Origin: Promethearchaeum sp.
Lineage (GTDB): Archaea > Asgardarchaeota > Lokiarchaeia > Sigyniarchaeales > Promethearchaeaceae
DNA: 16,538 nt
Assembly (NCBI GenBank): GCA_030612265.1
Contig: JAUWOE010000069.1
Location: forward strand, 1 to 16,538
Direction of reading: 5' to 3'
Part shown: piece after piece, positions 5,800 through 15,806 of the stretch
Layout: every line of letters begins with the position of its first letter
How positions within the stretch are numbered: position 1 is the first letter of the stretch
The notes under the pieces: generated by a model
What the model was told of the DNA's origin: nothing
Database searches by the model: none
Seen by the model: only the letters and a program-made list of their open reading frames with translations
Translations under genes and position numbers: made by a program

Positions 5800-6087
5800 A
5801 TGGCAAAAATGAAAATCGCATGGAATTCTATTCCTATCGAATATGAGATTATAAATGCATTAATCGACAACCGTGGCGAAATGCTCACCACCGACTTACA
5901 ACGCAAACTATCAAATATGTATGAAGATTTTAGTCGTACAGATTTGATGAAGCACCTATTTCGACTTGAGGTTCGTTCTTTTATACATGTCGTGGGAATT
6001 AAAAAAGATGTTTCTAAAGTAGAAATTAATAAAAATGGGCAATTTACCGAAGAAATTCGAAAAAGAATAAAAGAATTTATGCATTAA
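5800..6087 (+). CDS. Small (95 aa) predicted winged-helix protein, function unknown
   Basis: ORF with a helix-helix-helix-wing pattern (EYEIINALIDNRGEMLTTDLQRKLS .. RTDLMKHLFRLEVRSFIHVVGIKKDVSKVEIN). Its stop lies 2 nt from the stop of the convergent HerA-like gene. I recognise no family. Confidence 0.5.
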   Translation: MAKMKIAWNSIPIEYEIINALIDNRGEMLTTDLQRKLSNMYEDFSRTDLMKHLFRLEVRSFIHVVGIKKDVSKVEINKNGQFTEEIRKRIKEFMH

Positions 6088-6089
6088 AC

Positions 6090-7850
6090 CTATTCTTTAA
6101 TTTCAAAGCTATCAAAATCTATAAAATTTTCTTGGATAAAATTCGGCAAAATATTTCCTATTGGTTTTTTGGAGTTATTAAATGCATCTTTATCAACATA
6201 TTTTTGACAAATTTCAGAAATTAATTTTTCTCCACGAGGATTTGGTAATTCCCTCTTTCTAATTTTGGTAAAAATTGGATAATTTAATGCAGCGCCCATA
6301 ATCAAAGCATTACCTGTAGGTAATGTGCTAATTATATCGATTGAGCCCCTTGTTAAAGCTTCAGATGTTTGCTTTATATGTTTTAAATCATAGGGATTCG
6401 TTATTCTCATTACAATTTGAGTGTTACACTGAGATAAAGCAGTTGTACTGAGTCTGACAGGTCTTTGAGAAACCAAGACTAATTGTGCAAAAAATTTTCT
6501 TCCTTCACGTGCAATAGTTTCAAAGATATTCTTTGTTATTGCATTTTTACCTCCGTATTCAGGTAAAAAATTATGTGCTTCTTCAAGAAAAATGATAAAA
6601 GGGGAAATTTTCCCACTTCTGCGGTAATAGAATAATTTTGAAGTTATATAATGAAGTAAAATCTGTTTTTTTCTCATAGAAATTATTGAAGATAAATCCA
6701 AAATTGAAAGTTCTGCCACTTTTATTAATTCATAAATAGACGGAGATTCACTCTTGCCGAAAATGTTTAAATTATTTAAATCCGCTAACCAACCGATTAA
6801 AGTTGATTGCAATTTTGAATTTATATCGGGATTTTCTGATAATTCAGTAATGATGTCATTAATATCATAACCCTTTAAAACGTCATCATCTGTTGAAGTT
6901 TTACTCTTTTTGAATTTCTTTCTACAATTTTTTATAGATTTTCGAAGTTCTCGTAATTGTGGAACAGAAATACCTGGTTGATAATGTTTAAAATCATATT
7001 CTGTCAAATCTGGCACTCCAATTTGTATAAATAATCCATTAAAAATTGTAATTTTATTTTGTATTCTGTTTAAACTTGAAATTTTTGATTGTTCTAACTT
7101 TTCTTGGGTATTATCTTCTATTTTTTCCTTTAAAAAGCGATATTCACCATGAATATCTATAAGAAATAGAGCGGGTGTTCCTAGATCTTTTGGACGAGAT
7201 AAAAGTTCTTCAAATAAAACTGATATTAGATAACTTTTTCCCGCTCCCGATTGAGCCAATATTGCTACATGTTTATTAAAAAGACGATTTATATTCAAAG
7301 TGACATCTTGATTATAATTGCTTAAATTTCCAATATTTAGTCCTTTATCATCTAGACCTAAGAAATTTCTAAGATAATCTCCTTTTAGAATATATACCTC
7401 ATTACCTGGATTGACTGGAAATCCTACTCTTTGGATCTTCTTAAAAATTGAAGGATCAATTTTTTCAGAAAATTTATTTTTAGAGCGAACTGTTCCTAAC
7501 AGATGTACGTCGACAATGTTACATTCCCATTGATCACTCGGGAAGAAATTTTGCATATTAACATTTGCAAGATTAAAGTTTTTCACTGTTTGAACATTGG
7601 AGAAATATTGATTATTCGTTCTGATTTGCTCAATTATACCAATCACAAAACCTTCATGTGATTCTACTAAACAATATTGGCCCTGTTGTATAAAAAGTGA
7701 GTTTTTTGATGTGAATGCAGACTGATTATTAGTAAGGATGAATGAATATTCAAATATATTAGGAGATAAGTTATTAATTCCTGAGATAACAATTCCAATT
7801 GATTCGATTTGCTGTTTTGATTTTGAATCAAGAACTTTTTGAAGTGTCAT
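6090..7850 (-). CDS. HerA/FtsK-superfamily (DUF87-type) ATPase with N-terminal HAS-barrel-like domain
   Basis: 586-aa ORF with an N-terminal barrel-like segment (IGIVISG...GQYCLVESHEGFVIGIIEQI). It has Walker A AQSGAGKSY (codons at 7233..7250), a DIHGEY motif, Walker B FIIFLEEAHNFLP and the HerA-typical REGRKFFAQLVLVSQRPVRLSTTALSQCNTQIVMRITNPYD. A TATA-like ATTTTAAAAA on the minus strand at 7875..7884 lies about 30 nt upstream of the ATG. Confidence 0.8.
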   Translation of the reverse strand: MTLQKVLDSKSKQQIESIGIVISGINNLSPNIFEYSFILTNNQSAFTSKNSLFIQQGQYCLVESHEGFVIGIIEQIRTNNQYFSNVQTVKNFNLANVNMQNFFPSDQWECNIVDVHLLGTVRSKNKFSEKIDPSIFKKIQRVGFPVNPGNEVYILKGDYLRNFLGLDDKGLNIGNLSNYNQDVTLNINRLFNKHVAILAQSGAGKSYLISVLFEELLSRPKDLGTPALFLIDIHGEYRFLKEKIEDNTQEKLEQSKISSLNRIQNKITIFNGLFIQIGVPDLTEYDFKHYQPGISVPQLRELRKSIKNCRKKFKKSKTSTDDDVLKGYDINDIITELSENPDINSKLQSTLIGWLADLNNLNIFGKSESPSIYELIKVAELSILDLSSIISMRKKQILLHYITSKLFYYRRSGKISPFIIFLEEAHNFLPEYGGKNAITKNIFETIAREGRKFFAQLVLVSQRPVRLSTTALSQCNTQIVMRITNPYDLKHIKQTSEALTRGSIDIISTLPTGNALIMGAALNYPIFTKIRKRELPNPRGEKLISEICQKYVDKDAFNNSKKPIGNILPNFIQENFIDFDSFEIKE

Positions 7851-7960: not shown

Positions 7961-7984
7961 AAATGTTTCCATATGGAAACATTT
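7961..7984. promoter_or_regulatory. Perfect 24-bp palindrome (candidate operator) overlapping the BRE/TATA region of the 8023 operon
   Basis: AAATGTTTCCAT|ATGGAAACATTT is its own reverse complement with no mismatch. Its 3' end overlaps a TATA-like TTTATATG at 7982..7989, about 35-40 nt upstream of ATG 8023. It lies in the 172-nt divergent intergenic region shared with the HerA-like gene. Confidence 0.5.
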
Positions 7985-8022: not shown

Positions 8023-9393
8023 ATGACTCCCAAAGATCATAAAAAAAATAGGGAAATTCCCATAAGTTTACGGGGTATCGAATCAATTCTCCGTGTTCTA
8101 AACAATGAACTTAAGGACCCTTCTAGTATTAGACAAATTAGTGAAGTTACTGGTCTTTCAATGCGGGTAGCTAAAAATATTTTAATGCAATTAGAAAATC
8201 TTAAGCAAGTAGAACGAGTTTTAGAAAAAGGGCAAATACTACCAAAATGGGGTTTAACTAGGCTAGGAAAGGAAAATGCTAAAGCAATTGAAAAAAGTTC
8301 CAATGGTTTGAATAAAAAACCGAGTAATAGATTATCAGAACTTTTAATTAGTAATATACAAATAGCAAAAAATATAGAGGAACAAAATACAAAAATTGGA
8401 GCAACCCATCGAAATTTCATAAATTTATTAGATAAATTAAAATTAAATTTGAGTAAATCTATGGGTATTTGTTATAACTTGGAACAACCAATTTTTGCTG
8501 AACGGTTGGGAGATATTATACGCAAATTAAAATCCATCAAAACCAATTTTTCGAGTTTTCGTGTAAATCCCTTATCTTTTTATGATTTACATAAAAAAGG
8601 GACTAAAAAGAAAATTTCCGCTCGAAAAAAGAAAGATTTTCTTTCAGAGATTTTATTTATCAATCAGATCTTGCTTAATCAGCTTAATTTTATCTCAGAG
8701 TTGGAATTAGAGGTAAGTAAAAACCTCGAGCAAGAAAACTATAGATTATTTAGTGAAATTTATAATCAAATAACAGACCAAATCAGGATTTTAGATTTTT
8801 TACTCCAAAAAAGAACCAGTGTTGATGATGGTATTCACATACTTGCAGAAGATGAATTAAATTTACTTCAAAAGAATCAAGTTGGGTTAAGTTTGCTTAA
8901 AAAATTCTTACCTCCATTAATCCAAGATAATAGAAAAGAAGAAATACTGAAAGAAAGCCTAATATCACTTATTTCTGATTTATTGGGAGTGCACTCAAAA
9001 AATAATAGTAAGCCATATAATATCCCACTTGTTTCTTTTTATGAATTAGCCAAAGACAAGTGTAACTATACAGGCTTTACAGTTGAGAATTTAGAAAATG
9101 TGTTAAACCAACTAGCTGAACAAGGCTTAATATCCGGGATAATTGAAATAAAAGATGATGAAAATCATATTTTTAAAATTGTCCAGTTAAAACCGTATGA
9201 TATTTCAGTTGACGAAATAAAACTTCTTCGATTAGCAATTCAATTAAAATCTTTTTCAATGGCTGAAGTTATGGAAAATTTAAGTTGGAATCAATCAAAA
9301 GTAGAAAAAATACTTCAAACTATGACAAATAACGGATTACTCCGGCATTCTCAATCATATCTACAAGGAGATAAATGGTATATATTAATGTAA
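8023..9393 (+). CDS. Multi-winged-helix/coiled-coil protein: N-terminal MarR/TrmB-like wHTH, long helical middle, C-terminal tandem WH resembling ESCRT-II EAP30 (Vps22/Vps36)
   Basis: 456-aa ORF. The N-terminal wHTH is SIRQISEVTGLSMRVAKNILMQLENLKQVERV. Residues ~100-330 are helical and heptad-like. The C-terminal residues 334-455 (nt 9022..9390) form two WH units: FTVENLENVLNQLAEQGLISGIIEIKDDENHIFKIVQLKP and FSMAEVMENLSWNQSKVEKILQTMTNNGLLRHSQSYLQGDKWYIL. I am confident it is a gene and only moderately to weakly confident of the EAP30 likeness. Confidence 0.6.
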   Translation: MTPKDHKKNREIPISLRGIESILRVLNNELKDPSSIRQISEVTGLSMRVAKNILMQLENLKQVERVLEKGQILPKWGLTRLGKENAKAIEKSSNGLNKKPSNRLSELLISNIQIAKNIEEQNTKIGATHRNFINLLDKLKLNLSKSMGICYNLEQPIFAERLGDIIRKLKSIKTNFSSFRVNPLSFYDLHKKGTKKKISARKKKDFLSEILFINQILLNQLNFISELELEVSKNLEQENYRLFSEIYNQITDQIRILDFLLQKRTSVDDGIHILAEDELNLLQKNQVGLSLLKKFLPPLIQDNRKEEILKESLISLISDLLGVHSKNNSKPYNIPLVSFYELAKDKCNYTGFTVENLENVLNQLAEQGLISGIIEIKDDENHIFKIVQLKPYDISVDEIKLLRLAIQLKSFSMAEVMENLSWNQSKVEKILQTMTNNGLLRHSQSYLQGDKWYILM

Positions 9394-9417: not shown

Positions 9418-10314
9418 ATGTTAAGAAAGAAAAACGGCAGTAATGGTAAAGATCGATTTCCATCAATTACTTCATGGCCCCAGGATGATTCAAAAGATCA
9501 AAATTCTCAATTAATTTATTGTTTTCCCAAACAAAACGATAATATTAAGAAAGCAAAATTCTTTAATGTTAAAGAACATGAACGCGCGTTATATCTAAAA
9601 CACGGTGAATTAATTGCAGAACTTGGTGGCGGAACGTATGAATTAGAGAAAAAGTCCCGCGCTAAGGGTACAAAAATTATTTGGTTTGACACTTCAATGC
9701 ATCAAATTTTATGGGGTATCCCAGAGATAAATGGCATTCCAAGTCAAGACGGGTTTATATTTGGAATGTTTGGTGATCTTAAATTACATATTTACAATGT
9801 CAGCATTTTCTATAAATACGTTATTGGCGGAAGTAAAGAATGGACGATACAACAATTGAAAGATTGGATAATAAGCCTTTTTTATGTTATTCTCCGTGAT
9901 ATTTTTAAGGAATTTGATATTTCAGAAATTTTCCAAGAATCTCGAGAAATAGTTATGAATAAAGTGATTTCCAAAGTTTGTGATGAAATGAATCTTTATG
10001 GCTTGGAATTGGACGCGTTTAATATTTTAGGTTTTAAAACACCAGAAAATGCAAAAGAAGTTCTTAATTCCAAACAAGAACAAGCGTATCAATTCAAGAA
10101 ATGGCTTGAAAATGAAAAAAAACGAGATATCGAAGATCGAGAAATCATTCAAGATCGAATAAAATCTTTAAAGAGTCGTTTGCAAGGGCTTCAAAACGAT
10201 TTACTGGAAAGTAAAATCACCAGGGAAGAATATGATTACAAGTGCCAAACAATCAAAGAATTCATAGAAGAAGCAAATTCAGAACTGGAACCGGATAGAA
10301 GGTATGAAAAATAA
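9418..10314 (+). CDS. SPFH/band-7 superfamily protein of the YdjI (Band_7_1, COG4260-like) type with C-terminal coiled coil and no Zn ribbon
   Basis: 298-aa ORF. SITSWPQDD..LIYCFPKQNDNIKKAKFFNVKEHERALYLKHGELIAELGGGTYELE matches the N-terminal pattern of this family (I..W....Y.FP....I..ga.l.V.E.q.Av....G.....lgpG.Y.L). This is followed by WGIP..DG..FGMFGDLKLHIYN and GLELDAFNILGFKTPE. Residues ~215-298 are coiled coil. It starts 24 nt after the upstream gene. Confidence 0.6.
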   Translation: MLRKKNGSNGKDRFPSITSWPQDDSKDQNSQLIYCFPKQNDNIKKAKFFNVKEHERALYLKHGELIAELGGGTYELEKKSRAKGTKIIWFDTSMHQILWGIPEINGIPSQDGFIFGMFGDLKLHIYNVSIFYKYVIGGSKEWTIQQLKDWIISLFYVILRDIFKEFDISEIFQESREIVMNKVISKVCDEMNLYGLELDAFNILGFKTPENAKEVLNSKQEQAYQFKKWLENEKKRDIEDREIIQDRIKSLKSRLQGLQNDLLESKITREEYDYKCQTIKEFIEEANSELEPDRRYEK

Positions 10315-10334: not shown

Positions 10335-13300
10335 ATGAGAAATGGAAATAAAAAAAGGACACATAGTCAAATTACATTAATTATATTAGGAATTTGTATC
10401 ATTCTTATTTCAAGCATTGAAACCCATGCATTGTATAATGATTCTGCGCAAAATCAGGAGAAAATTTTTGAAGTAAATGCAGCAACATTACTTATTTCAC
10501 ATGAACCAATTCGGATAGACGGAAATAATGATTTAGAAGCTTTTTGCGCTGGTAATGGGACTGATGGATTATCATGGGGAACCGCTTTTAAAATTGAAAA
10601 TTATTCAATTACTTCAGGTGAGCATTCGGGAATTTTTATCCAAAATACCGATAAATTTCTAATAATCAATAATTGTTCAATCAAAAATTTTGATGAAGAG
10701 AAGGTTACTGATAACGGGACTTACTACGAAAAAGGGATTGAAATTCAAAATTGTTCGAATGTTAAAATCACTAATTGTTCATTGATAGACAACATATATG
10801 GGATCTATTTAAACTCATCAACCAATAATACAATAATTCAAAATAATTGTTCTTTAAATGATTATGGATATACATTGGTGAATTCAGAAAATAACACCCT
10901 ATTCAATAATACTGCTTCAAATAATGAAGGTGATGGATTTAGATTAGTTGGAAGTATCCACAATAATATCTCAACAAATATTGCAAATTTTAATAATTGG
11001 AATGGTATTACTCTTGATCAGTATTATTCAGATATTAGTGCTGTGAGTAGTCAAGAAAATTTAATAGTAAACAATATAATTGAAAATAATCAAGAAAATG
11101 GTATTAGTTTCTCATATTCTGATAGTAACTCAGTACTTAATAACTGTATTTCGAATAATCGAGGTTCTGGAATTACATTAAGATTTTCTTCTGATAACTA
11201 CTTATCTTTTAATTTAATTAATAATAATAATAACGCAGGAATAGAACTTTTCGATGATTGTAACTGGAATTTGATTTTAAATAATAATATTAGTGACAAT
11301 TCCAATGGAATATATATCATTAATTCTGGTCAAAATACTATTGGAGAAAACATCATAACTAATCATACTAGTGGTTATGGTATTTTAATTCTATATGAGG
11401 ATGAATATCAATCAGAACAGAATATTTATGGAAATATTTTTGAAAATAATTCACAAGATATATCATATGAGCAAATTACTTATTACTCTTATTCACCACC
11501 ACCTTATTATGTTTATGTGATTATAGCAGTTTTTATTATTGGAATCGTAGTAATACTCATGATAAATCGAAAAAAAATAAAAAAACGATGGAAAAAATTA
11601 ATTTCTGATCGCGAAATAAGAAAAAGCGAACAGAAAATTGAACGAGCGAAAAAAAATAAGGAAAGTAGTTTAAAATTATCAAAAATATCTGTAGAAAATA
11701 TTGATCGGGAAGATTCTAAATTAAGTTTGCTAAGAATTTATAAAATATTTAAGGTTATTGGATGGCTATGTGTATTATCTATAATGTTTCTATTTATAGG
11801 ATTTACCTTCGGAACAGGAGCTCCATATTTCCTTATCGATATTCCTATTTTGATAATTTTATGGATTATTAATCGAAAAAAAATCTCATATCAATGGAAT
11901 AAATTCATTGCTGAGCGCGAAAACGAACTGAGAATTAATAGAGATGAAAGGACTAATAAACACGATTCAAAAACTTCAAAAATTTTAATAAAAAATATGA
12001 ATCGGAAAAAATCGAAATCAGGAAAACAATTTATTTTTAAATTACTAAAAGTACTTTCTTGGCTTTTTGTATTATTCTGGATGTTTCTATTTATAGTTTT
12101 TAGCTTCGTAACAGGAGATCAATATTTCCTTATCGATATTCCTATTGTGATCATTATTTGGTTTTTTTATAGAAAAAAGACAAAATTTAATTATCATAAA
12201 AGGAAAACCAATCATTTAATTAAAATTAGCAAAAGTAAAACTAAGAAAGCTATAGATTATGCAAAAATGCATAAATATAAAAGATCCAGGAATTATTGGT
12301 TAAGTTCGGAACGAAATTATCGAAGAGCTCTAAGACTAGTACCGGATTTTCATAAAATTGATTTTCTTGAGAAAAAAATAATTTCCATTAAACAGAATAT
12401 ATTAGCTACCTATATTTCTGAAGGTATTCTTCTAAGTAAAATTGCCTGGGCTAAATTCCAAGAAAATCACTTTTCCCAAGCAAAAAAACAATATTCTAAG
12501 AGTATTTCGGCAATCGAATTAGTTTTAAAAAGTATTGAAACAGAGAATGTTTTCAGTGAAGAAGAGGAGTTTCCAATTACCGCTTCCTTAATTTTTGAAA
12601 TTTTGCAATTCTTAGAGAAAAACCTAGATCAAATTAAAATTAAAGAAAATAATAAAAAGAAATCAAAGGTTTTTATAAAATCCAGTGATGTACAAAAGAT
12701 AAATGAGAAAATTGTTAAATCAATAAAAGAAATGAATGAATCTTTATGGATTTATTGCCAATCACTTGATTCTCATGAAGATTTACTCGATTTAGATGTA
12801 TTATCGAAAATATTGGAGAGTAAATTAACAAAATCAGAAAAAATATTGAACTCGGTTCAAGAACAAATGCAATATTTATTAAATTACATGCAAACTTCAA
12901 CCAATAGATATGAGAGAAATGGTGTTGAAACAAAATCGATTGCAATGAATATAAACCGCACTTTAGAACAAGAAAGAATTGAAAATAAACATCTGAAAAT
13001 TATTCGAGAATATGAATATATCGGGGGTAAAATTCGCTTGAAAGTTGGCATGGTGAATCATTCAGATAATGTTTTAACAAATTTAGCACTAAGATTCGAT
13101 TTACCTGAATCTTTAAAGTGGATTATCCATGAACCGAATTTAAAACGCAGAGGTGATACTATTCATATTGCAAAACTGGGTGGGAATGAAAAAATCGCAA
13201 TATCGCTTTATTTAGAACCAATAAATTGTTTAGAAAGTACGATTAATGCTACTTTAACCTATTTTGACAATAAAGATCGTCCACAAGCAATTATAATGGC

Positions 13301-13865
13301 ACCGAAAAAAGTTTCGATATCATGTCCAATTTTCTTTACAAGAGAAGAAGCCAACTTAGCCCGAGTAAAAAAAATACAATTGGAGCTTAAATATGAAGAC
13401 CATAAAATTTTCCCGCTTGTTAAATCGAATAAATCTGAATTGATTTTTAACAAAATTCTCGCTTCTATTGGAAAACATGATGTCAAATTAGTAAGCAAAG
13501 AGTATTCCCTTGATAATAATAAGGGCGAAGCATATTTCTATGGGATAACTAAAGTTAAGAAGGAAAAAATGATAATTTATTTATTATTGGATTCAAACCA
13601 TCAAATTATTGAAATTTCCGTAAATGGTGATGATCAAGAACCGATTACAGGGCTTCTTGCTGAACTTGAAAGCGAAATTCGTGATAAATTGCTAGTTCAT
13701 AATATTATCGAAGATTCCGATAAATTCCATGACATAAATACATCTATTCTTTTAGGGAATTGTCCTTTTTGTAATGGTCCTATTTCACAAACTAGTATAT
13801 CACTTTTCAAGAAAGGCGAAACTATAACATGCAAATATTGTGATACTATTATAACACCCTATTAA
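10335..13865 (+). CDS. Large (1176 aa) multi-domain membrane protein: signal peptide, PbH1/NosD-like right-handed beta-helix ectodomain, TM, duplicated TM-hairpin modules, cytoplasmic helical + beta-sandwich + alpha/beta region, C-terminal zinc ribbon
   Basis: AGGAG lies about 9 nt upstream of the ATG. The N-terminus is KKRTHSQITLIILGICIILISSIETHA. Residues ~55-375 hold repeated rungs of the type NCSIKNF / IEIQNCSNVKITNCSLIDNIYGIYLNSSTNNTIIQNNCS / NNEGDGFRLVGSIHNNIS / NQENGISFSYSDSNSVLNNCISNNRGSGITL. The first TM is YVYVIIAVFIIGIVVILMI followed by NRKK. Two TM hairpins follow. The C-terminus is CPFC-x18-CKYC (13761..13841). Confidence 0.8.
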   Translation: MRNGNKKRTHSQITLIILGICIILISSIETHALYNDSAQNQEKIFEVNAATLLISHEPIRIDGNNDLEAFCAGNGTDGLSWGTAFKIENYSITSGEHSGIFIQNTDKFLIINNCSIKNFDEEKVTDNGTYYEKGIEIQNCSNVKITNCSLIDNIYGIYLNSSTNNTIIQNNCSLNDYGYTLVNSENNTLFNNTASNNEGDGFRLVGSIHNNISTNIANFNNWNGITLDQYYSDISAVSSQENLIVNNIIENNQENGISFSYSDSNSVLNNCISNNRGSGITLRFSSDNYLSFNLINNNNNAGIELFDDCNWNLILNNNISDNSNGIYIINSGQNTIGENIITNHTSGYGILILYEDEYQSEQNIYGNIFENNSQDISYEQITYYSYSPPPYYVYVIIAVFIIGIVVILMINRKKIKKRWKKLISDREIRKSEQKIERAKKNKESSLKLSKISVENIDREDSKLSLLRIYKIFKVIGWLCVLSIMFLFIGFTFGTGAPYFLIDIPILIILWIINRKKISYQWNKFIAERENELRINRDERTNKHDSKTSKILIKNMNRKKSKSGKQFIFKLLKVLSWLFVLFWMFLFIVFSFVTGDQYFLIDIPIVIIIWFFYRKKTKFNYHKRKTNHLIKISKSKTKKAIDYAKMHKYKRSRNYWLSSERNYRRALRLVPDFHKIDFLEKKIISIKQNILATYISEGILLSKIAWAKFQENHFSQAKKQYSKSISAIELVLKSIETENVFSEEEEFPITASLIFEILQFLEKNLDQIKIKENNKKKSKVFIKSSDVQKINEKIVKSIKEMNESLWIYCQSLDSHEDLLDLDVLSKILESKLTKSEKILNSVQEQMQYLLNYMQTSTNRYERNGVETKSIAMNINRTLEQERIENKHLKIIREYEYIGGKIRLKVGMVNHSDNVLTNLALRFDLPESLKWIIHEPNLKRRGDTIHIAKLGGNEKIAISLYLEPINCLESTINATLTYFDNKDRPQAIIMAPKKVSISCPIFFTREEANLARVKKIQLELKYEDHKIFPLVKSNKSELIFNKILASIGKHDVKLVSKEYSLDNNKGEAYFYGITKVKKEKMIIYLLLDSNHQIIEISVNGDDQEPITGLLAELESEIRDKLLVHNIIEDSDKFHDINTSILLGNCPFCNGPISQTSISLFKKGETITCKYCDTIITPY
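11562..12167 (+). repeat. Intragenic tandem duplication (102 aa + 100 aa units) encoding a basic juxtamembrane linker plus TM hairpin
   Basis: Unit 1 is 11562..11867 (INRKKIKKRWKKLISDRE...KIFKVIGWLCVLSIMFLFIGFTFGTGAPYFLIDIPILIILWI). Unit 2 is 11868..12167 (INRKKISYQWNKFIAERE...KLLKVLSWLFVLFWMFLFIVFSFVTGDQYFLIDIPIVIIIWFF). They share an identical 25-nt core ATATTTCCTTATCGATATTCCTATT at 11825..11849 and 12122..12146. Confidence 0.85.
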
Positions 13866-13930: not shown

Positions 13931-14340
13931 TTAAATAGTGGGTGGAATTAAAGCACACTTTGATTTCTTCATTCCTTTAGATAAGAAATAATCATATCGA
14001 CTTCTATGTTTTTGATAGAATTTTTTTCCGTAGAGGACAACACCTTCACCTATCGCATCGATGGCTGTAAGGGCATAACTTTCAAACACTCTTCAAATTC
14101 TTCTGTTTTATAGCAAAATAAATCTAAAGATAAAAGAGGGGCTGATTTTATAACCCAATCACTTCTCTCAATAAAACTCCCTTTAAAATCACCTACTAAT
14201 AATATATCATAATCACTGTATCGTGTGGCTTCATCTCGCCCTTGGGAACCAAATAAAATTACCATATTTAAATTAATTTCACTTTTTACCTGATTAATCA
14301 TGGATTGAAAAAGGGTTTGCCATTTATTCAAAGATTTCAT
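13931..14340 (-). pseudogene. MNT-type (DNA pol beta-like) nucleotidyltransferase, split by a frameshift
   Basis: The 96-aa ORF 14050..14340 carries the NTase motif ILFGSQGRDEATRYSDYDILLV and is preceded by GGAGG. It ends prematurely at ...KTEEFEECLKVMPLQPSMR*. A second frame (13931..14092, below the ORF-track length cutoff) reads RVFESYALTAIDAIGEGVVLYGKKFYQKHRSRYDYFLSKGMKKSKCALIPPTI*, the typical C-terminal helix of this family. This implies a 1-nt indel between about 14074 and 14092. Confidence 0.6.
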
Positions 14341-14429: not shown

Positions 14430-15061
14430 CTATAATAATAAAACAAAATTTTTCAATAGTTTTATCCCATCATTAAACGATGAGGGATCATCCGGATATT
14501 CTGGATGAAATTGAACACCATAAATTTGCCGAGATTTATACTTAATGATCTGAATTTTACAAGAAGGGCTGGAGGCATATATTTTGAAAATATCTGTAAA
14601 TCTTGGAACGAATTCGATTTCTTCTAAGTGGCTTTCGAACACATGGATTTGATCTTTAGGAAATAATTCAAATTTTGGATTTATATTTAGAATTAAAGAT
14701 TTTTCATTTTCAATATTAATAATTGTATTATTAATCGGTTTGATCTCGAAACCATATGCACACGCGATTAATTGTAGACCATAAATATACCTAAAATCGG
14801 TTTCTCATATTTTCTTATGAAATTCATTTCTGTTTGATATTTTTCAATGATTTTTATATCTGATAACATGTGATAAGAACCGGTTAAAAGTAAACCATCC
14901 ATTTTTTTCAAAATATCGATTGTTTCAGGTTTTTCTAATTGTGAATAATGGATATGTTTCCAAATTAATTTATCTTCACAACTCTCAAAGTATTTGTTAA
15001 ATCTTCGTTCAAATTTATCAATCTCTTTATCAAAATTATTAATAATACCTAGAATTTTCAT
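14430..15061 (-). pseudogene. Class I glutamine amidotransferase (GATase1, COG0518/GuaA-N-like), frameshifted at the catalytic Cys codon
   Basis: ORF 14768..15061 ends ...KPILGIFMVYN*. Shifting one frame at about 14782..14787 gives YGLQLIACAYGFEIKPINN...DQIHVFESHLEEIEF, which runs without stops into ORF 14430..14642 (..IYGVQFHPEY, the His/Glu of the triad). The expected nucleophile elbow is GIC-YGLQ. The observed GGTATATTTATGGTCTACAA is what a single G deletion from ...ATA TGT TAT GGT CTA CAA would leave. Confidence 0.65.
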
Positions 15062-15158: not shown

Positions 15159-15806
15159 TTAAGCAGAAATAGGTAAATTGTTTACTTGGTTGAATTTCTT
15201 ACCGCAATGTTCGCAAAATGTATATGCATTATCTGTTAACATATCTATCATCTTTGGTGTGAATTCTTCTCCACAATCTGTGCAGAAAAACTTAGGACTA
15301 TTAATTGCTGATTTCTTTGGGTGAGAGATTATCGTTGTTTTTGAATTTAATTCTTCAGATCTAGATTCATATCCAGGTTGTTTTGTGCGAATAATTCTCA
15401 TTTCTTTGGGTCTTCTAACAACATACTTTTTAGGTTGAGGTGGAGATTGAACGATTCTTTTATTTTTCTCTTCTTTGAACAATTTCGGATAGAAAATATT
15501 GACAATTTGTTTTAAATTTGAAAAATAATTATCAAGAATTGTTGATAAGTCTTCTCCCCCTGAAATCAGTCCAATTGGCGCAGTTAGAAATGCTACAATA
15601 AGTGTATAGAACATAATTGATAGCCCTAAAAAGGTGGCTTTCAAGATTTCAATAACTAATAGGAAGGTTAATTTTAAAATTTCAAAAGTAAACCAAATGG
15701 CCAAGATCGATATAACTATTGCAAGAATTAAACCAATTATTCTCGTTTCTAAACCTCCGCTCATAAACCAGTTTTCAAGCGTATTCCATGCGTAATCGAG
15801 TATCAT
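15159..15806 (-). CDS. Membrane protein (2-3 N-terminal TM helices), basic/Pro-rich linker, C-terminal zinc ribbon; function unknown
   Basis: 215-aa ORF with hydrophobic segments IIGLILAIVISILAIWFTFEIL and FLGLSIMFYTLIVAFLTAPIGLI. The linker is low-complexity (QSPPQPKKYVVRRPKEMRIIRTKQPGYESRSEE). The C-terminus is CTDC-x22-CEHC. Confidence 0.6.
   Translation of the reverse strand: MILDYAWNTLENWFMSGGLETRIIGLILAIVISILAIWFTFEILKLTFLLVIEILKATFLGLSIMFYTLIVAFLTAPIGLISGGEDLSTILDNYFSNLKQIVNIFYPKLFKEEKNKRIVQSPPQPKKYVVRRPKEMRIIRTKQPGYESRSEELNSKTTIISHPKKSAINSPKFFCTDCGEEFTPKMIDMLTDNAYTFCEHCGKKFNQVNNLPISA

Follow-up and report, generated by a model that had tools for sequence, protein, structure and literature searches.

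A receptor-like membrane protein with an adaptin/COPI appendage-like ear, encoded beside SPFH and ESCRT-II-like proteins in a Promethearchaeum-type Lokiarchaeon

The 16,538-nucleotide (nt) contig JAUWOE010000069.1 of Promethearchaeum sp., hereafter the window, carries a three-gene operon whose third gene encodes a protein of 1176 amino acids (aa). Our analysis gives good support to this protein being a receptor-like membrane protein of a Promethearchaeum-type Lokiarchaeon, in which an extracellular beta-helix is joined through membrane segments to a cytoplasmic stalk, hinge, ear and zinc ribbon. The beta-rich and alpha/beta blocks of the cytoplasmic region are modelled, again with good support, as an ear resembling the appendages of adaptins and COPI, and the two genes upstream encode an ESCRT-II-like protein and an SPFH protein. 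We propose, with a rough probability of 0.45, that the 1176-aa protein would serve as a receptor or anchor recruiting SPFH and ESCRT-like partners to a membrane patch. An earlier annotation made from the DNA letters (the first-pass annotation) had described the order of the domains, and had missed both the identity of the ear and the ESCRT-II-like/SPFH operon. The operon comprises, in window coordinates:

8023–9393, + strand: gene 1, an ESCRT-II (Vps22/Vps36)-like protein of 456 aa, comprising an N-terminal winged helix (wH), a long helical middle and a C-terminal tandem wH
9418–10314, + strand: gene 2, a YdjI-type SPFH/Band-7 protein (Pfam) of 298 aa, whose C-terminal part is a coiled coil
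10335–13865 including the stop codon, + strand: gene 3, the stalk-ear protein, ATG start, 1176 aa
13890–13908, + strand: two oligo-T tracts, 25–43 nt past the gene 3 stop, possibly the archaeal transcription terminator of the operon (sequence only)

The 1176-aa frame translates without internal stops, and since G+C across the window is only ~27–30%, an open frame of this length is not a product of chance. A syntenic orthologue of 1133 aa (QEE15706.1/WP_147662608.1; 71.5% identity) is encoded in the complete genome of Promethearchaeum syntrophicum MK-D1, where its sole annotation is 'NosD domain-containing protein' and where the operon corresponds to QEE15704–15706 (DSAG12_01531, followed by QEE15705 and QEE15706). 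No paper in the literature searched mentions the MK-D1 accessions or locus tags, and the accessions are absent from the main text of PMC10936438 and from its supplements, two of which were covered in part. A further orthologue, P0077, has 1171 aa. Among the orthologues, the ear (sandwich plus platform) is 91–92% identical, the stalk 65–74%, the ectodomain 62–66% and the hairpins 35–68%, so that selection is clearly focused on the ear, the most constrained part of the protein. In the 78%-identical orthologue (JBQSDX010000269.1, L002:930-1060), the beta-helix and the remainder are called as two open reading frames (ORFs) with a 4-nt overlap; this is a frameshift, due to an assembly error or a pseudogene, and no natural split, because the homologous reading goes on in another frame across an A-rich stretch.

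The first-pass annotation had proposed that the cytoplasmic region be modelled with AlphaFold and searched with Foldseek, and that its homologues be compared for domains that co-vary. The AlphaFold2 (AF2) model of residues 613–1176, built on 60 homologues (mean predicted local distance difference test score, pLDDT, 82.8), consists of seven long helices (613–857), a disordered segment (~851–883), a beta-sandwich (887–994), an alpha/beta domain (1003–1121) and a C-terminal Cys4 site, which is the order of helical, beta-rich, alpha/beta and zinc-ribbon blocks that had been read from the sequence. The parts of this cytoplasmic cassette are:

12171–12542, + strand: residues 613–736, four membrane-proximal helices, TPR/MIT-like (AF2 pLDDT above 90)
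12543–12905, + strand: residues 737–857, a stalk of three long helices, possibly a coiled coil (AF2 pLDDT 55–70)
12906–12992, + strand: residues 858–886, a flexible hinge (pLDDT below 50 for model residues 239–271)
12993–13322, + strand: residues 887–996, an Ig-like, GAE-like beta-sandwich, matching the sandwich subdomain of an appendage (Foldseek)
13323–13709, + strand: residues 997–1125, a predicted alpha/beta platform, alpha-beta-alpha-beta4-alpha, putatively corresponding to the platform/TBP-like subdomain of an appendage (DSSP topology, Foldseek)
13761–13862, + strand: residues 1143–1176, a CPxC-x19-CxxC zinc ribbon, with C, P, C, C and C invariant in alignments A1 and A2

The Foldseek search yielded an adaptin/COPI appendage-like ear. 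Each of its eleven best matches is a coat appendage with two subdomains that aligns from end to end (E 4e-9 to 2e-7); among them are gamma-COP (9qpq_H, 3.6e-9), AP2 alpha (2vj0, 1w80 and 1b9k, ~2e-8) and AP2 beta2 (1e42 and 2iv9), and the alignments extend over ~245 columns across whole ears of 233–250 aa at 14–16% sequence identity. BBSome subunits of GAE-platform type appear lower in the same list, and the sandwich alone matches the GAE domain of GGA2 (3mnm_A) with a TM-score of 0.70 and a root-mean-square deviation (rmsd) of 3.8 Å. Similarity to the appendage sandwich is thus present at the level of the fold and sub-threshold at the level of sequence, where Pfam Alpha_adaptinC2 (PF02883) gives weak matches in 27 of 61 homologues (best 1.7e-4, below the gathering score); no Pfam platform model matched among the homologues. 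Searched by sequence against the PDB, the cytoplasmic region and the ear profile returned nothing, or a spurious LuxQ match at E 0.23, and the ear is therefore recognised through its fold only. Four aromatic residues (W55, F126, F127 and Y195 in A2 numbering) are invariant in the ear family. Pfam provides no evidence of Vps28-C, steadiness-box or longin domains in the 1176-aa protein or its homologues. An Adaptin_N or HEAT trunk is not found either; a TPR/MIT-like stalk of 245 aa and the membrane anchor precede the hinge instead. The helical region before the ear keeps a length of ~250 aa across the subfamily. The family profile A3 matches the MIT domains of VPS4A/B at positions ~11–72, within the first three helices (1yxr, 4.7e-4; 2jq9, 1.5e-3; 1wr0, 3.6e-3); matches to MIT from this profile span the whole domain at 5e-4 to 2e-2, and consensus TPRs score equal or better. 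The Pfam MIT model finds weak matches, below its cut-off, in 7 of 61 homologues.

Residues 613–1176 retrieved 72 proteins, many of them from unnamed sources; all named sources are Asgard archaea (Promethearchaeota/Lokiarchaeia, Hermod- and Thorarchaeota, and one 'Lokiarchaeota') or unassigned subsurface and marine-sediment metagenomes. In this close subfamily the last 302 aa are strikingly conserved (298–303 aa, always at the extreme C-terminus). Clustered at 50% identity, 893 representatives match a profile of the ear module at E <= 1e-3, of which 306 reach E <= 1e-30; they come mostly from Asgard archaea, and the module is nearly always C-terminal in this wider archaeal family as well. The zinc ribbon belongs to the close subfamily (~36 representatives) and is absent from the wider family, whose members match only profile positions ~5–250. 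The comparison of homologues shows that stalk, hinge, ear and zinc ribbon stay linked in one cassette of ~560 aa, and that the N-terminal part is freely exchanged.

Three layouts occur among the 210 members examined: a non-membrane segment of at least 200 aa followed by a transmembrane (TM) segment and the ear module (57 members), a compact polytopic TM domain followed by the ear module (81) and proteins with no TM segment (72). The first-pass annotation had called the wiring of an ectodomain through the membrane to such a module unusual, a judgement that these 57 members, with polytopic TM domains in 81 more, do not bear out; the layout is among the family's common designs. The ectodomains of the first layout include beta-helices, an SBBP propeller plus TSP3, PKD/Big/CARDB or WD40/PQQ domains, and elsewhere transporter-like TM domains, Ras GTPase, PCI, TPR and SPFH domains stand N-terminal to the ear. 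For example, P0050 fuses a Ras/Roc GTPase to the cassette. At L033:22-2330, the TM-less 572-aa P0002 lies 18 nt behind a 190-aa membrane fragment of the Gpr1/Fun34/YaaH (acetate-channel-like) type. Its close relative P0003 is a single 879-aa protein with N-terminal TM segments, and P0002 is probably a split gene, which would imply a transporter-like domain fused to the stalk-ear cassette.

The N-terminal half of the protein was assigned from hydropathy (Kyte-Doolittle, KD, 19-residue window), the positive-inside rule and domain logic:

10335–10433, + strand: residues 1–33, signal region with a basic n-region and a hydrophobic core, ending in THA before L (hydropathy)
10434–11498, + strand: residues 34–388, extracellular right-handed beta-helix, NosD/PbH1 (Pfam, NCBIfam)
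11499–11570, + strand: residues 389–412, TM1 (KD peak 3.15, core ~391–409), followed by NRKKIKKRWKK (positive-inside)
11571–11735, + strand: residues 413–467, basic cytoplasmic linker 1, the first half of repeat unit 1
11736–11870, + strand: residues 468–512, hydrophobic hairpin 1, with an arm of ~18–24 aa, the turn GTGAPY and the short arm YFLIDIPILIILWII
11871–12026, + strand: residues 513–564, basic cytoplasmic linker 2 (15 K+R)
12027–12170, + strand: residues 565–612, hydrophobic hairpin 2, with the turn VTGDQY, a duplicate of hairpin 1

The signal or anchor segment, the PbH1-like rungs, and the TM helix with its basic NRKKIKKRWKK tail, all named by the first-pass annotation, are present in the frame according to Pfam, NCBIfam and hydropathy. 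Residues 1–33, with a hydrophobic h-region at ~13–30, are predicted to be either a Sec signal peptide, which would be cleaved, or an uncleaved signal anchor. The beta-helix matches Pfam NosD (E 8.6e-30, 104.2 bits; cut-off 23.6) and Beta_helix (E 9.4e-29, 100.5 bits; cut-off 25.9), and NCBIfam identifies five para_beta_helix (TIGR03804) repeats together with a NosD-family match over residues 93–380. The protein does not score as NosD proper (TIGR04247, 48.5 bits against a cut-off of 300), and there are no nos genes in the window. The beta-helix is presumably a NosD/pectate-lyase-type domain that binds glycans or surfaces. The Asn-rich ectodomain has 16 N-x-S/T sequons, compared with 11.5 ± 2.8 in shuffled sequences, and the 564-aa cytoplasmic part has 6; given the Asn-rich composition this enrichment is modest, and it lends weak support to a location outside the cell.

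Downstream of TM1, residues 410–478 contain 23 K+R versus 9 D+E. The two linker-plus-hairpin modules of the first-pass annotation, with their turns GTGAPY and VTGDQY, are indeed there and arose by tandem duplication (residues 404–510 versus 505–609, 47% identity over 107 aa, E 4e-33). Hairpin 1 comprises residues 468–491, GTGAPY (492–497) and 498–512, 45 aa in total, and hairpin 2 comprises residues 565–591, VTGDQY (592–597) and 598–612, 48 aa in total; the arms are short, with about 15–18 apolar residues. In the MK-D1 orthologue 41 of the 55 residues of linker 1 are deleted and hairpin 1 is kept. Hairpin 2 is 35% identical there and has become a continuous hydrophobic block of ~30 aa that has lost its polar turn. 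In a local search the linker-plus-hairpin unit is present only in three orthologues, and a search of 5.8 billion proteins with the TM/hairpin region (residues 381–640) gave no match at E <= 0.01. We therefore reject the hairpins as a conserved module, with orthologues as their only carriers and no matches elsewhere; they are the fastest-evolving and least conserved part of the protein.

The C-terminal cassette must be cytoplasmic and the beta-helix, which follows a signal sequence, outside, whether the hairpins cross the membrane twice or dip into it. This topology, proposed in the first-pass annotation with an odd number of crossings, is supported because the cassette also occurs in TM-less paralogues fused to Ras/Roc GTPase, PCI, TPR, WD40 and SPFH domains, and because of the terminal Cys4 zinc ribbon and the strongly basic loops after TM1 and the hairpins. 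With the beta-helix outside and the cassette inside, the number of crossings is therefore odd, TM1 contributing one and each hairpin two or none. At ~30 aa, the block in MK-D1 has a length more in keeping with a hairpin that dips into the membrane than with two complete crossings.

The three co-directional genes of the operon are separated by gaps of 24 nt and 20 nt. The gene 1 protein has no TM segment, and its AF2 model (pLDDT 81.7) gives as top Foldseek matches the ESCRT-II subunits EAP30/SNF8 (3cuq_A, 2.1e-4; 2zme_A, 2.8e-4), EAP45/Vps36 (2zme_B, 3.6e-3) and yeast Vps22 (1u5t_A), each aligned over ~230 columns, which is the whole target, with TM-scores of 0.44–0.47 on the target. Furthermore, its family profile matches SNF8 in the PDB at 4.5e-3, and Pfam EAP30 matches 4 of its 13 homologues (best 3.6e-5), the protein of the window itself being unmatched; all of the 13 that have a taxon name come from Promethearchaeota or Helarchaeota. 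By structure match, family profile and EAP30 matches of its homologues, the gene 1 protein is ESCRT-II-like. No Vps25-like gene was found in the loci examined. The gene 2 protein matches Band_7_1 (37.5 bits, cut-off 24) and Band_7 (30.9 bits, cut-off 23.6) in Pfam, and it is TM-less, with a maximum KD-19 value of 1.13.

The order wH, SPFH and stalk-ear protein recurs in five distinct loci (the window, which is L001, MK-D1, which is L006, and L003, L031 and L034), in which the third genes differ in their N-terminal membrane domains, and the wH-SPFH pair occurs in seven loci, these five and two more. In addition, P0010 and P0126 are fusions, without a membrane domain, of an SPFH domain of the operon subfamily (E 1e-75 and 1e-64) to the stalk-ear cassette. 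Because the same SPFH subfamily is fused to the cassette in these two proteins, SPFH and cassette would be expected to work together, by Rosetta-stone evidence. A scan for sigma-70 promoters found 40 sites versus 38.5 in shuffled sequences, and is uninformative for an archaeon.

Taken together, these features suggest a working model in which the 1176-aa protein would be one subunit of a three-part complex, both anchoring it in the membrane and binding its cargo or ligand. TM1 and the two lineage-specific hairpins hold the protein in the membrane, and the ear and zinc ribbon, carried on the stalk and hinge, would act as a protein-interaction hub in the manner of the ear of an AP or COPI large subunit. 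This hub could recruit the soluble SPFH protein, which would oligomerise into a membrane-microdomain scaffold, and the ESCRT-II-like protein as well, with ESCRT-III possibly being recruited through the ESCRT-II-like protein or through the MIT-like helices. The membrane patch occupied by the ectodomain might thereby be marked for sorting or remodelling, such as budding, the maintenance of protrusions or repair. The hairpins might add local membrane insertion, standing in for the hydrophobic hairpin of stomatin-type SPFH proteins.

Several observations weigh against this proposal. The proposed links among the three operon proteins all derive from gene order, gene fusion and fold, and nowhere do sequence matches to Pfam Alpha_adaptinC2, MIT or EAP30 reach the curated thresholds. 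Superposition of the whole ear is poor (TM-score ~0.35, rmsd ~19 Å), and therefore either the orientation of the subdomains differs from that in AP2 and COPI or the inter-domain geometry of the model is wrong. The helical segment of the 1176-aa protein, searched alone against the PDB, has no significant match and none to MIT, so the TPR/MIT assignment derives from the family profile. Neither the window nor the related triad loci contain a Vps4 or ESCRT-III gene, and most paralogues of the ear family lack SPFH or wH neighbours.

Cargo-selective membrane remodelling in Asgard archaea is a central open question of eukaryogenesis, and archaeal adaptin-ear-like domains have so far come to notice chiefly because they are associated with ESCRT neighbourhoods. 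Here, the locus joins an ear covalently to an extracellular binding domain, beside an ESCRT-II-like protein and an SPFH scaffold, and the connection between SPFH and the ear cassette is backed by two independent fusion genes. Near-identity of the locus in the cultured strain MK-D1 makes this possible cargo-sorting device testable as a defined set of three proteins, and some 900 representative proteins without a Pfam domain in the ear region gain an annotation. A wider idea, which we regard as improbable, is that Lokiarchaeia and other Asgard archaea possess a large family of 'receptor-adaptors', receptors and transporter-like proteins that each carry their own adaptin/COPI-type ear on a stalk, which in the present subfamily would combine with a dedicated ESCRT-II paralogue and an SPFH cage into a primitive machine for cargo-selective sorting or budding. 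If it were true, receptor-adaptors would be a prokaryotic forerunner of the eukaryotic link from cargo through the adaptor ear to ESCRT or a coat.

Among the other explanations, it is conceivable, if unlikely, that the protein is an outside-in signalling receptor, in which ligand binding or clustering would alter how the stalk oligomerises, the ear and zinc ribbon would be an output domain that binds a downstream regulator, and the wH protein would be a DNA-binding transcription factor, sequestered or released, and no analogue of ESCRT-II. Variable inputs on a constant C-terminal module do resemble one-component and receptor architectures, and the wH protein also matches wHTH domains of the MarR, TrmB and IclR types (MarR at 6e-4 with the profile, Pfam TrmB at 2e-5 and many MarR matches in Foldseek). 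However, its best whole-length structure matches are the ESCRT-II subunits and not dimeric MarR regulators, EAP30 is matched by the 4 homologues given above, the SPFH-cassette fusions point to a membrane scaffold rather than to transcription, and no known signalling output domain appears in the Pfam scan. The first-pass annotation had likewise suggested outside-in coupling, as one of two options; the receptor-like architecture on which that idea drew holds, but the hairpins as a conserved coupling device do not, being confined to orthologues and 35–68% identical among them.

We consider it rather unlikely that the protein is a surface adhesin or envelope protein, whose cassette would be a generic domain for oligomerisation or anchoring (to the cytoskeleton, or in proteostasis through the nearby Cdc48) and whose likeness to an ear would be a convergent Ig plus helix-grip arrangement without bearing on trafficking. 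Beta-helix surface proteins are common in archaea, as such an explanation would have it. Ig-like sandwiches readily find unrelated partners, and Foldseek also matches TRAP-beta, complement MG domains and accessory domains of glycosidases; the poor overall superposition of the ear and the synteny of Cdc48 in MK-D1 point the same way. Against convergence stand the eleven best matches, every one a full-length alignment to a two-subdomain coat appendage, the sequence-level matches to Alpha_adaptinC2 in 27 of 61 homologues, and the operon partners, ESCRT-II-like and SPFH, which both belong to membrane-trafficking or scaffold families. As for Cdc48, an opposite-strand HerA gene parts it from the operon, and its synteny is seen in a close relative only.

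Very unlikely, finally, is a membrane shaper, also suggested in the first-pass annotation, whose short-loop hairpins would wedge into the bilayer like those of reticulon or caveolin, generating curvature, for example in the protrusions of Promethearchaeum, with the cytoplasmic part merely regulating it: the short arms of ~15–18 apolar residues, the 6-residue turns with G or P, and the second block of MK-D1, which at ~30 aa is overlong for one pass, short for two and of reticulon-like length (and which, with the C-terminus inside, must make either no crossing or an even number of them), are all as this would require, but the hairpins are restricted to orthologues, without homologues elsewhere and least conserved, paralogues that share the cassette are anchored in unrelated ways or not at all, Pfam gives no match to reticulon or caveolin and no signature of either family, and selection acts on the ear rather than on the hairpins.

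Related loci offer further observations on the ear family and on the wH-SPFH pair. In many Promethearchaeota genomes (L012–L017 and L030), tandem pairs of paralogues of ~770–790 aa each combine a polytopic TM domain with the ear and zinc ribbon, and no SPFH or wH neighbours were detected there. Distant ear members of 1570–1960 aa (30–34% identity, no zinc ribbon) occur in metagenome-assembled genomes of Thermoplasmata and Methanobacteriota (L025, L027 and L028), where no ESCRT genes were seen. In L027 and L028 the ear protein is followed by an M6-peptidase-like surface protein of ~1180 aa; a link to Vps4/ESCRT-III at these two loci was considered and rejected, as the AAA gene, near the ear protein in L028, is a proteasome-activating nucleotidase and the neighbour is the M6 peptidase. 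Immediately behind the wH-SPFH-ear triad of L031 comes a gene for a small GTPase of the Arf/Rag family (L031:6636-7547). At L035:4749-10316 (Promethearchaeota), the wH-SPFH pair is followed by a gene for a protein of 360 aa that carries a CPxC...CxxC zinc ribbon at its C-terminus and resembles the platform end in sequence but does not match the ear profile, and then by a ThiF/E1-like gene and a JAB-type deubiquitinase-like gene, a neighbourhood that hints at a link to ubiquitin-like modification.

Within the window, a HerA/DUF87-type ATPase gene (6090–7850, − strand, 586 aa) diverges from the operon over a 172-nt intergenic region that holds a palindrome with a 10-bp stem (7961–7984). A 95-aa ORF next to it (5800–6087, + strand) has no family match, and both are syntenic in MK-D1. 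The HerA protein matches generic PADLOC HerA models, and no partner defence gene was seen. An anti-phage defence function of the operon, raised by this adjacent ATPase, was rejected on the PADLOC result, which gave no match for the 1176-aa and SPFH proteins and only trivial wHTH matches for the wH protein. Downstream, a 96-aa minimal nucleotidyltransferase (NTP_transf_2/Polbeta; 14050–14340, − strand) could represent MNT in a HEPN-MNT toxin-antitoxin pair, although a HEPN partner was not identified. A class-I glutamine amidotransferase gene (14433–15061, − strand) is broken near 14783–14786 into two frames, a 97-aa ORF (14768–15061) and a 70-aa ORF (14430–14642), by either a frameshift error in the contig or a pseudogene; it is intact at 210 aa in L002, L005 and MK-D1. 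A 215-aa protein (15159–15806, − strand) has hydrophobic segments near its N-terminus and a CxxC...CxxC zinc ribbon at its C-terminus, and is, as its sequence predicts, another membrane protein with a cytoplasmic zinc ribbon near the operon.

Alpha-adaptin-C and beta2-appendage domains have been noted in Asgard genomes (Eme et al., 2023), and archaeal 'adaptin appendage region' proteins with Ig and TBP subdomains have been described (arCOG15284; Meth_adaptin and Halo_adaptin systems; Makarova et al., 2024, mBio, PMC10936438). One of the latter has a zinc ribbon, and in one a TM linker leads to a GOLD domain. At loci of the Methanosarcinales and haloarchaeal types, their genes accompany those for SPFH proteins (coiled coil plus zinc ribbon), Vps36-like wH proteins, Vps4 and ESCRT-III. 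In Asgard archaea, the same study finds ears in multidomain proteins that also contain Vps28-C, longin, TPR and PCI domains, in combinations that include Ig (PMC10936438). The 1176-aa protein belongs among these archaeal adaptin-appendage proteins as a distinct version, its family having been compared with arCOG15284 by description. It shares with them a predicted two-subdomain ear and the SPFH and Vps36/Vps22-like wH neighbours, and with single members of the group the zinc ribbon or the TM link to an outside domain. It differs in its NosD-type beta-helix, its TM1 with two duplicated hairpins and its TPR/MIT-like stalk, and its locus differs in being a three-gene operon that stands by itself, encodes its own ESCRT-II-like protein and lacks Vps4 and ESCRT-III.

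Bacterial YdjI-type SPFH is needed to localise PspA, of the ESCRT-III family, at the membrane (PMC10936438), and an Asgard plasma membrane has been reported to bear SPFH-like baskets on its inner face (bioRxiv 10.1101/2025.11.06.686947). Like Bacillus subtilis YdjF-G-H-I, the operon encodes a TM-less Band_7_1 SPFH protein beside a membrane protein. YdjG is a zinc-ribbon membrane protein. Unlike the bacterial operon, that of the window has no PspA/ESCRT-III, its membrane partner has an ear and an ectodomain, and its further partner is ESCRT-II-like. The gene 1 protein, in turn, resembles eukaryotic ESCRT-II subunits (Vps22/SNF8 and Vps36) in placing a helical N-terminal part before tandem winged helices, but it is twice their length (456 aa) and has a further wH at its N-terminus as well as a helical insertion of ~150 aa. 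No Vps25 partner was found for it, nor a GLUE or NZF domain, and all its matches fall short of curated thresholds. The hairpins recall those of reticulon, caveolin and stomatin in their paired short arms, tight Pro/Gly turn and cytoplasmic ends, but differ in having no sequence similarity to them and in being lineage-specific and poorly conserved.

The eukaryotic appendage ear is an interaction hub (PMC10936438). As in the alpha and beta2 ears of AP2 and the gamma and beta ears of COPI, the sandwich precedes a predicted alpha/beta platform and both follow a long helical part and a flexible hinge. Unlike AP2 and COPI, the archaeal protein has no HEAT/alpha-solenoid trunk and no tetrameric adaptor, and a zinc ribbon is added. 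Furthermore, whereas the ears of AP2 and COPI are recruited to cargo tails, here the ear is fused directly to the membrane receptor.

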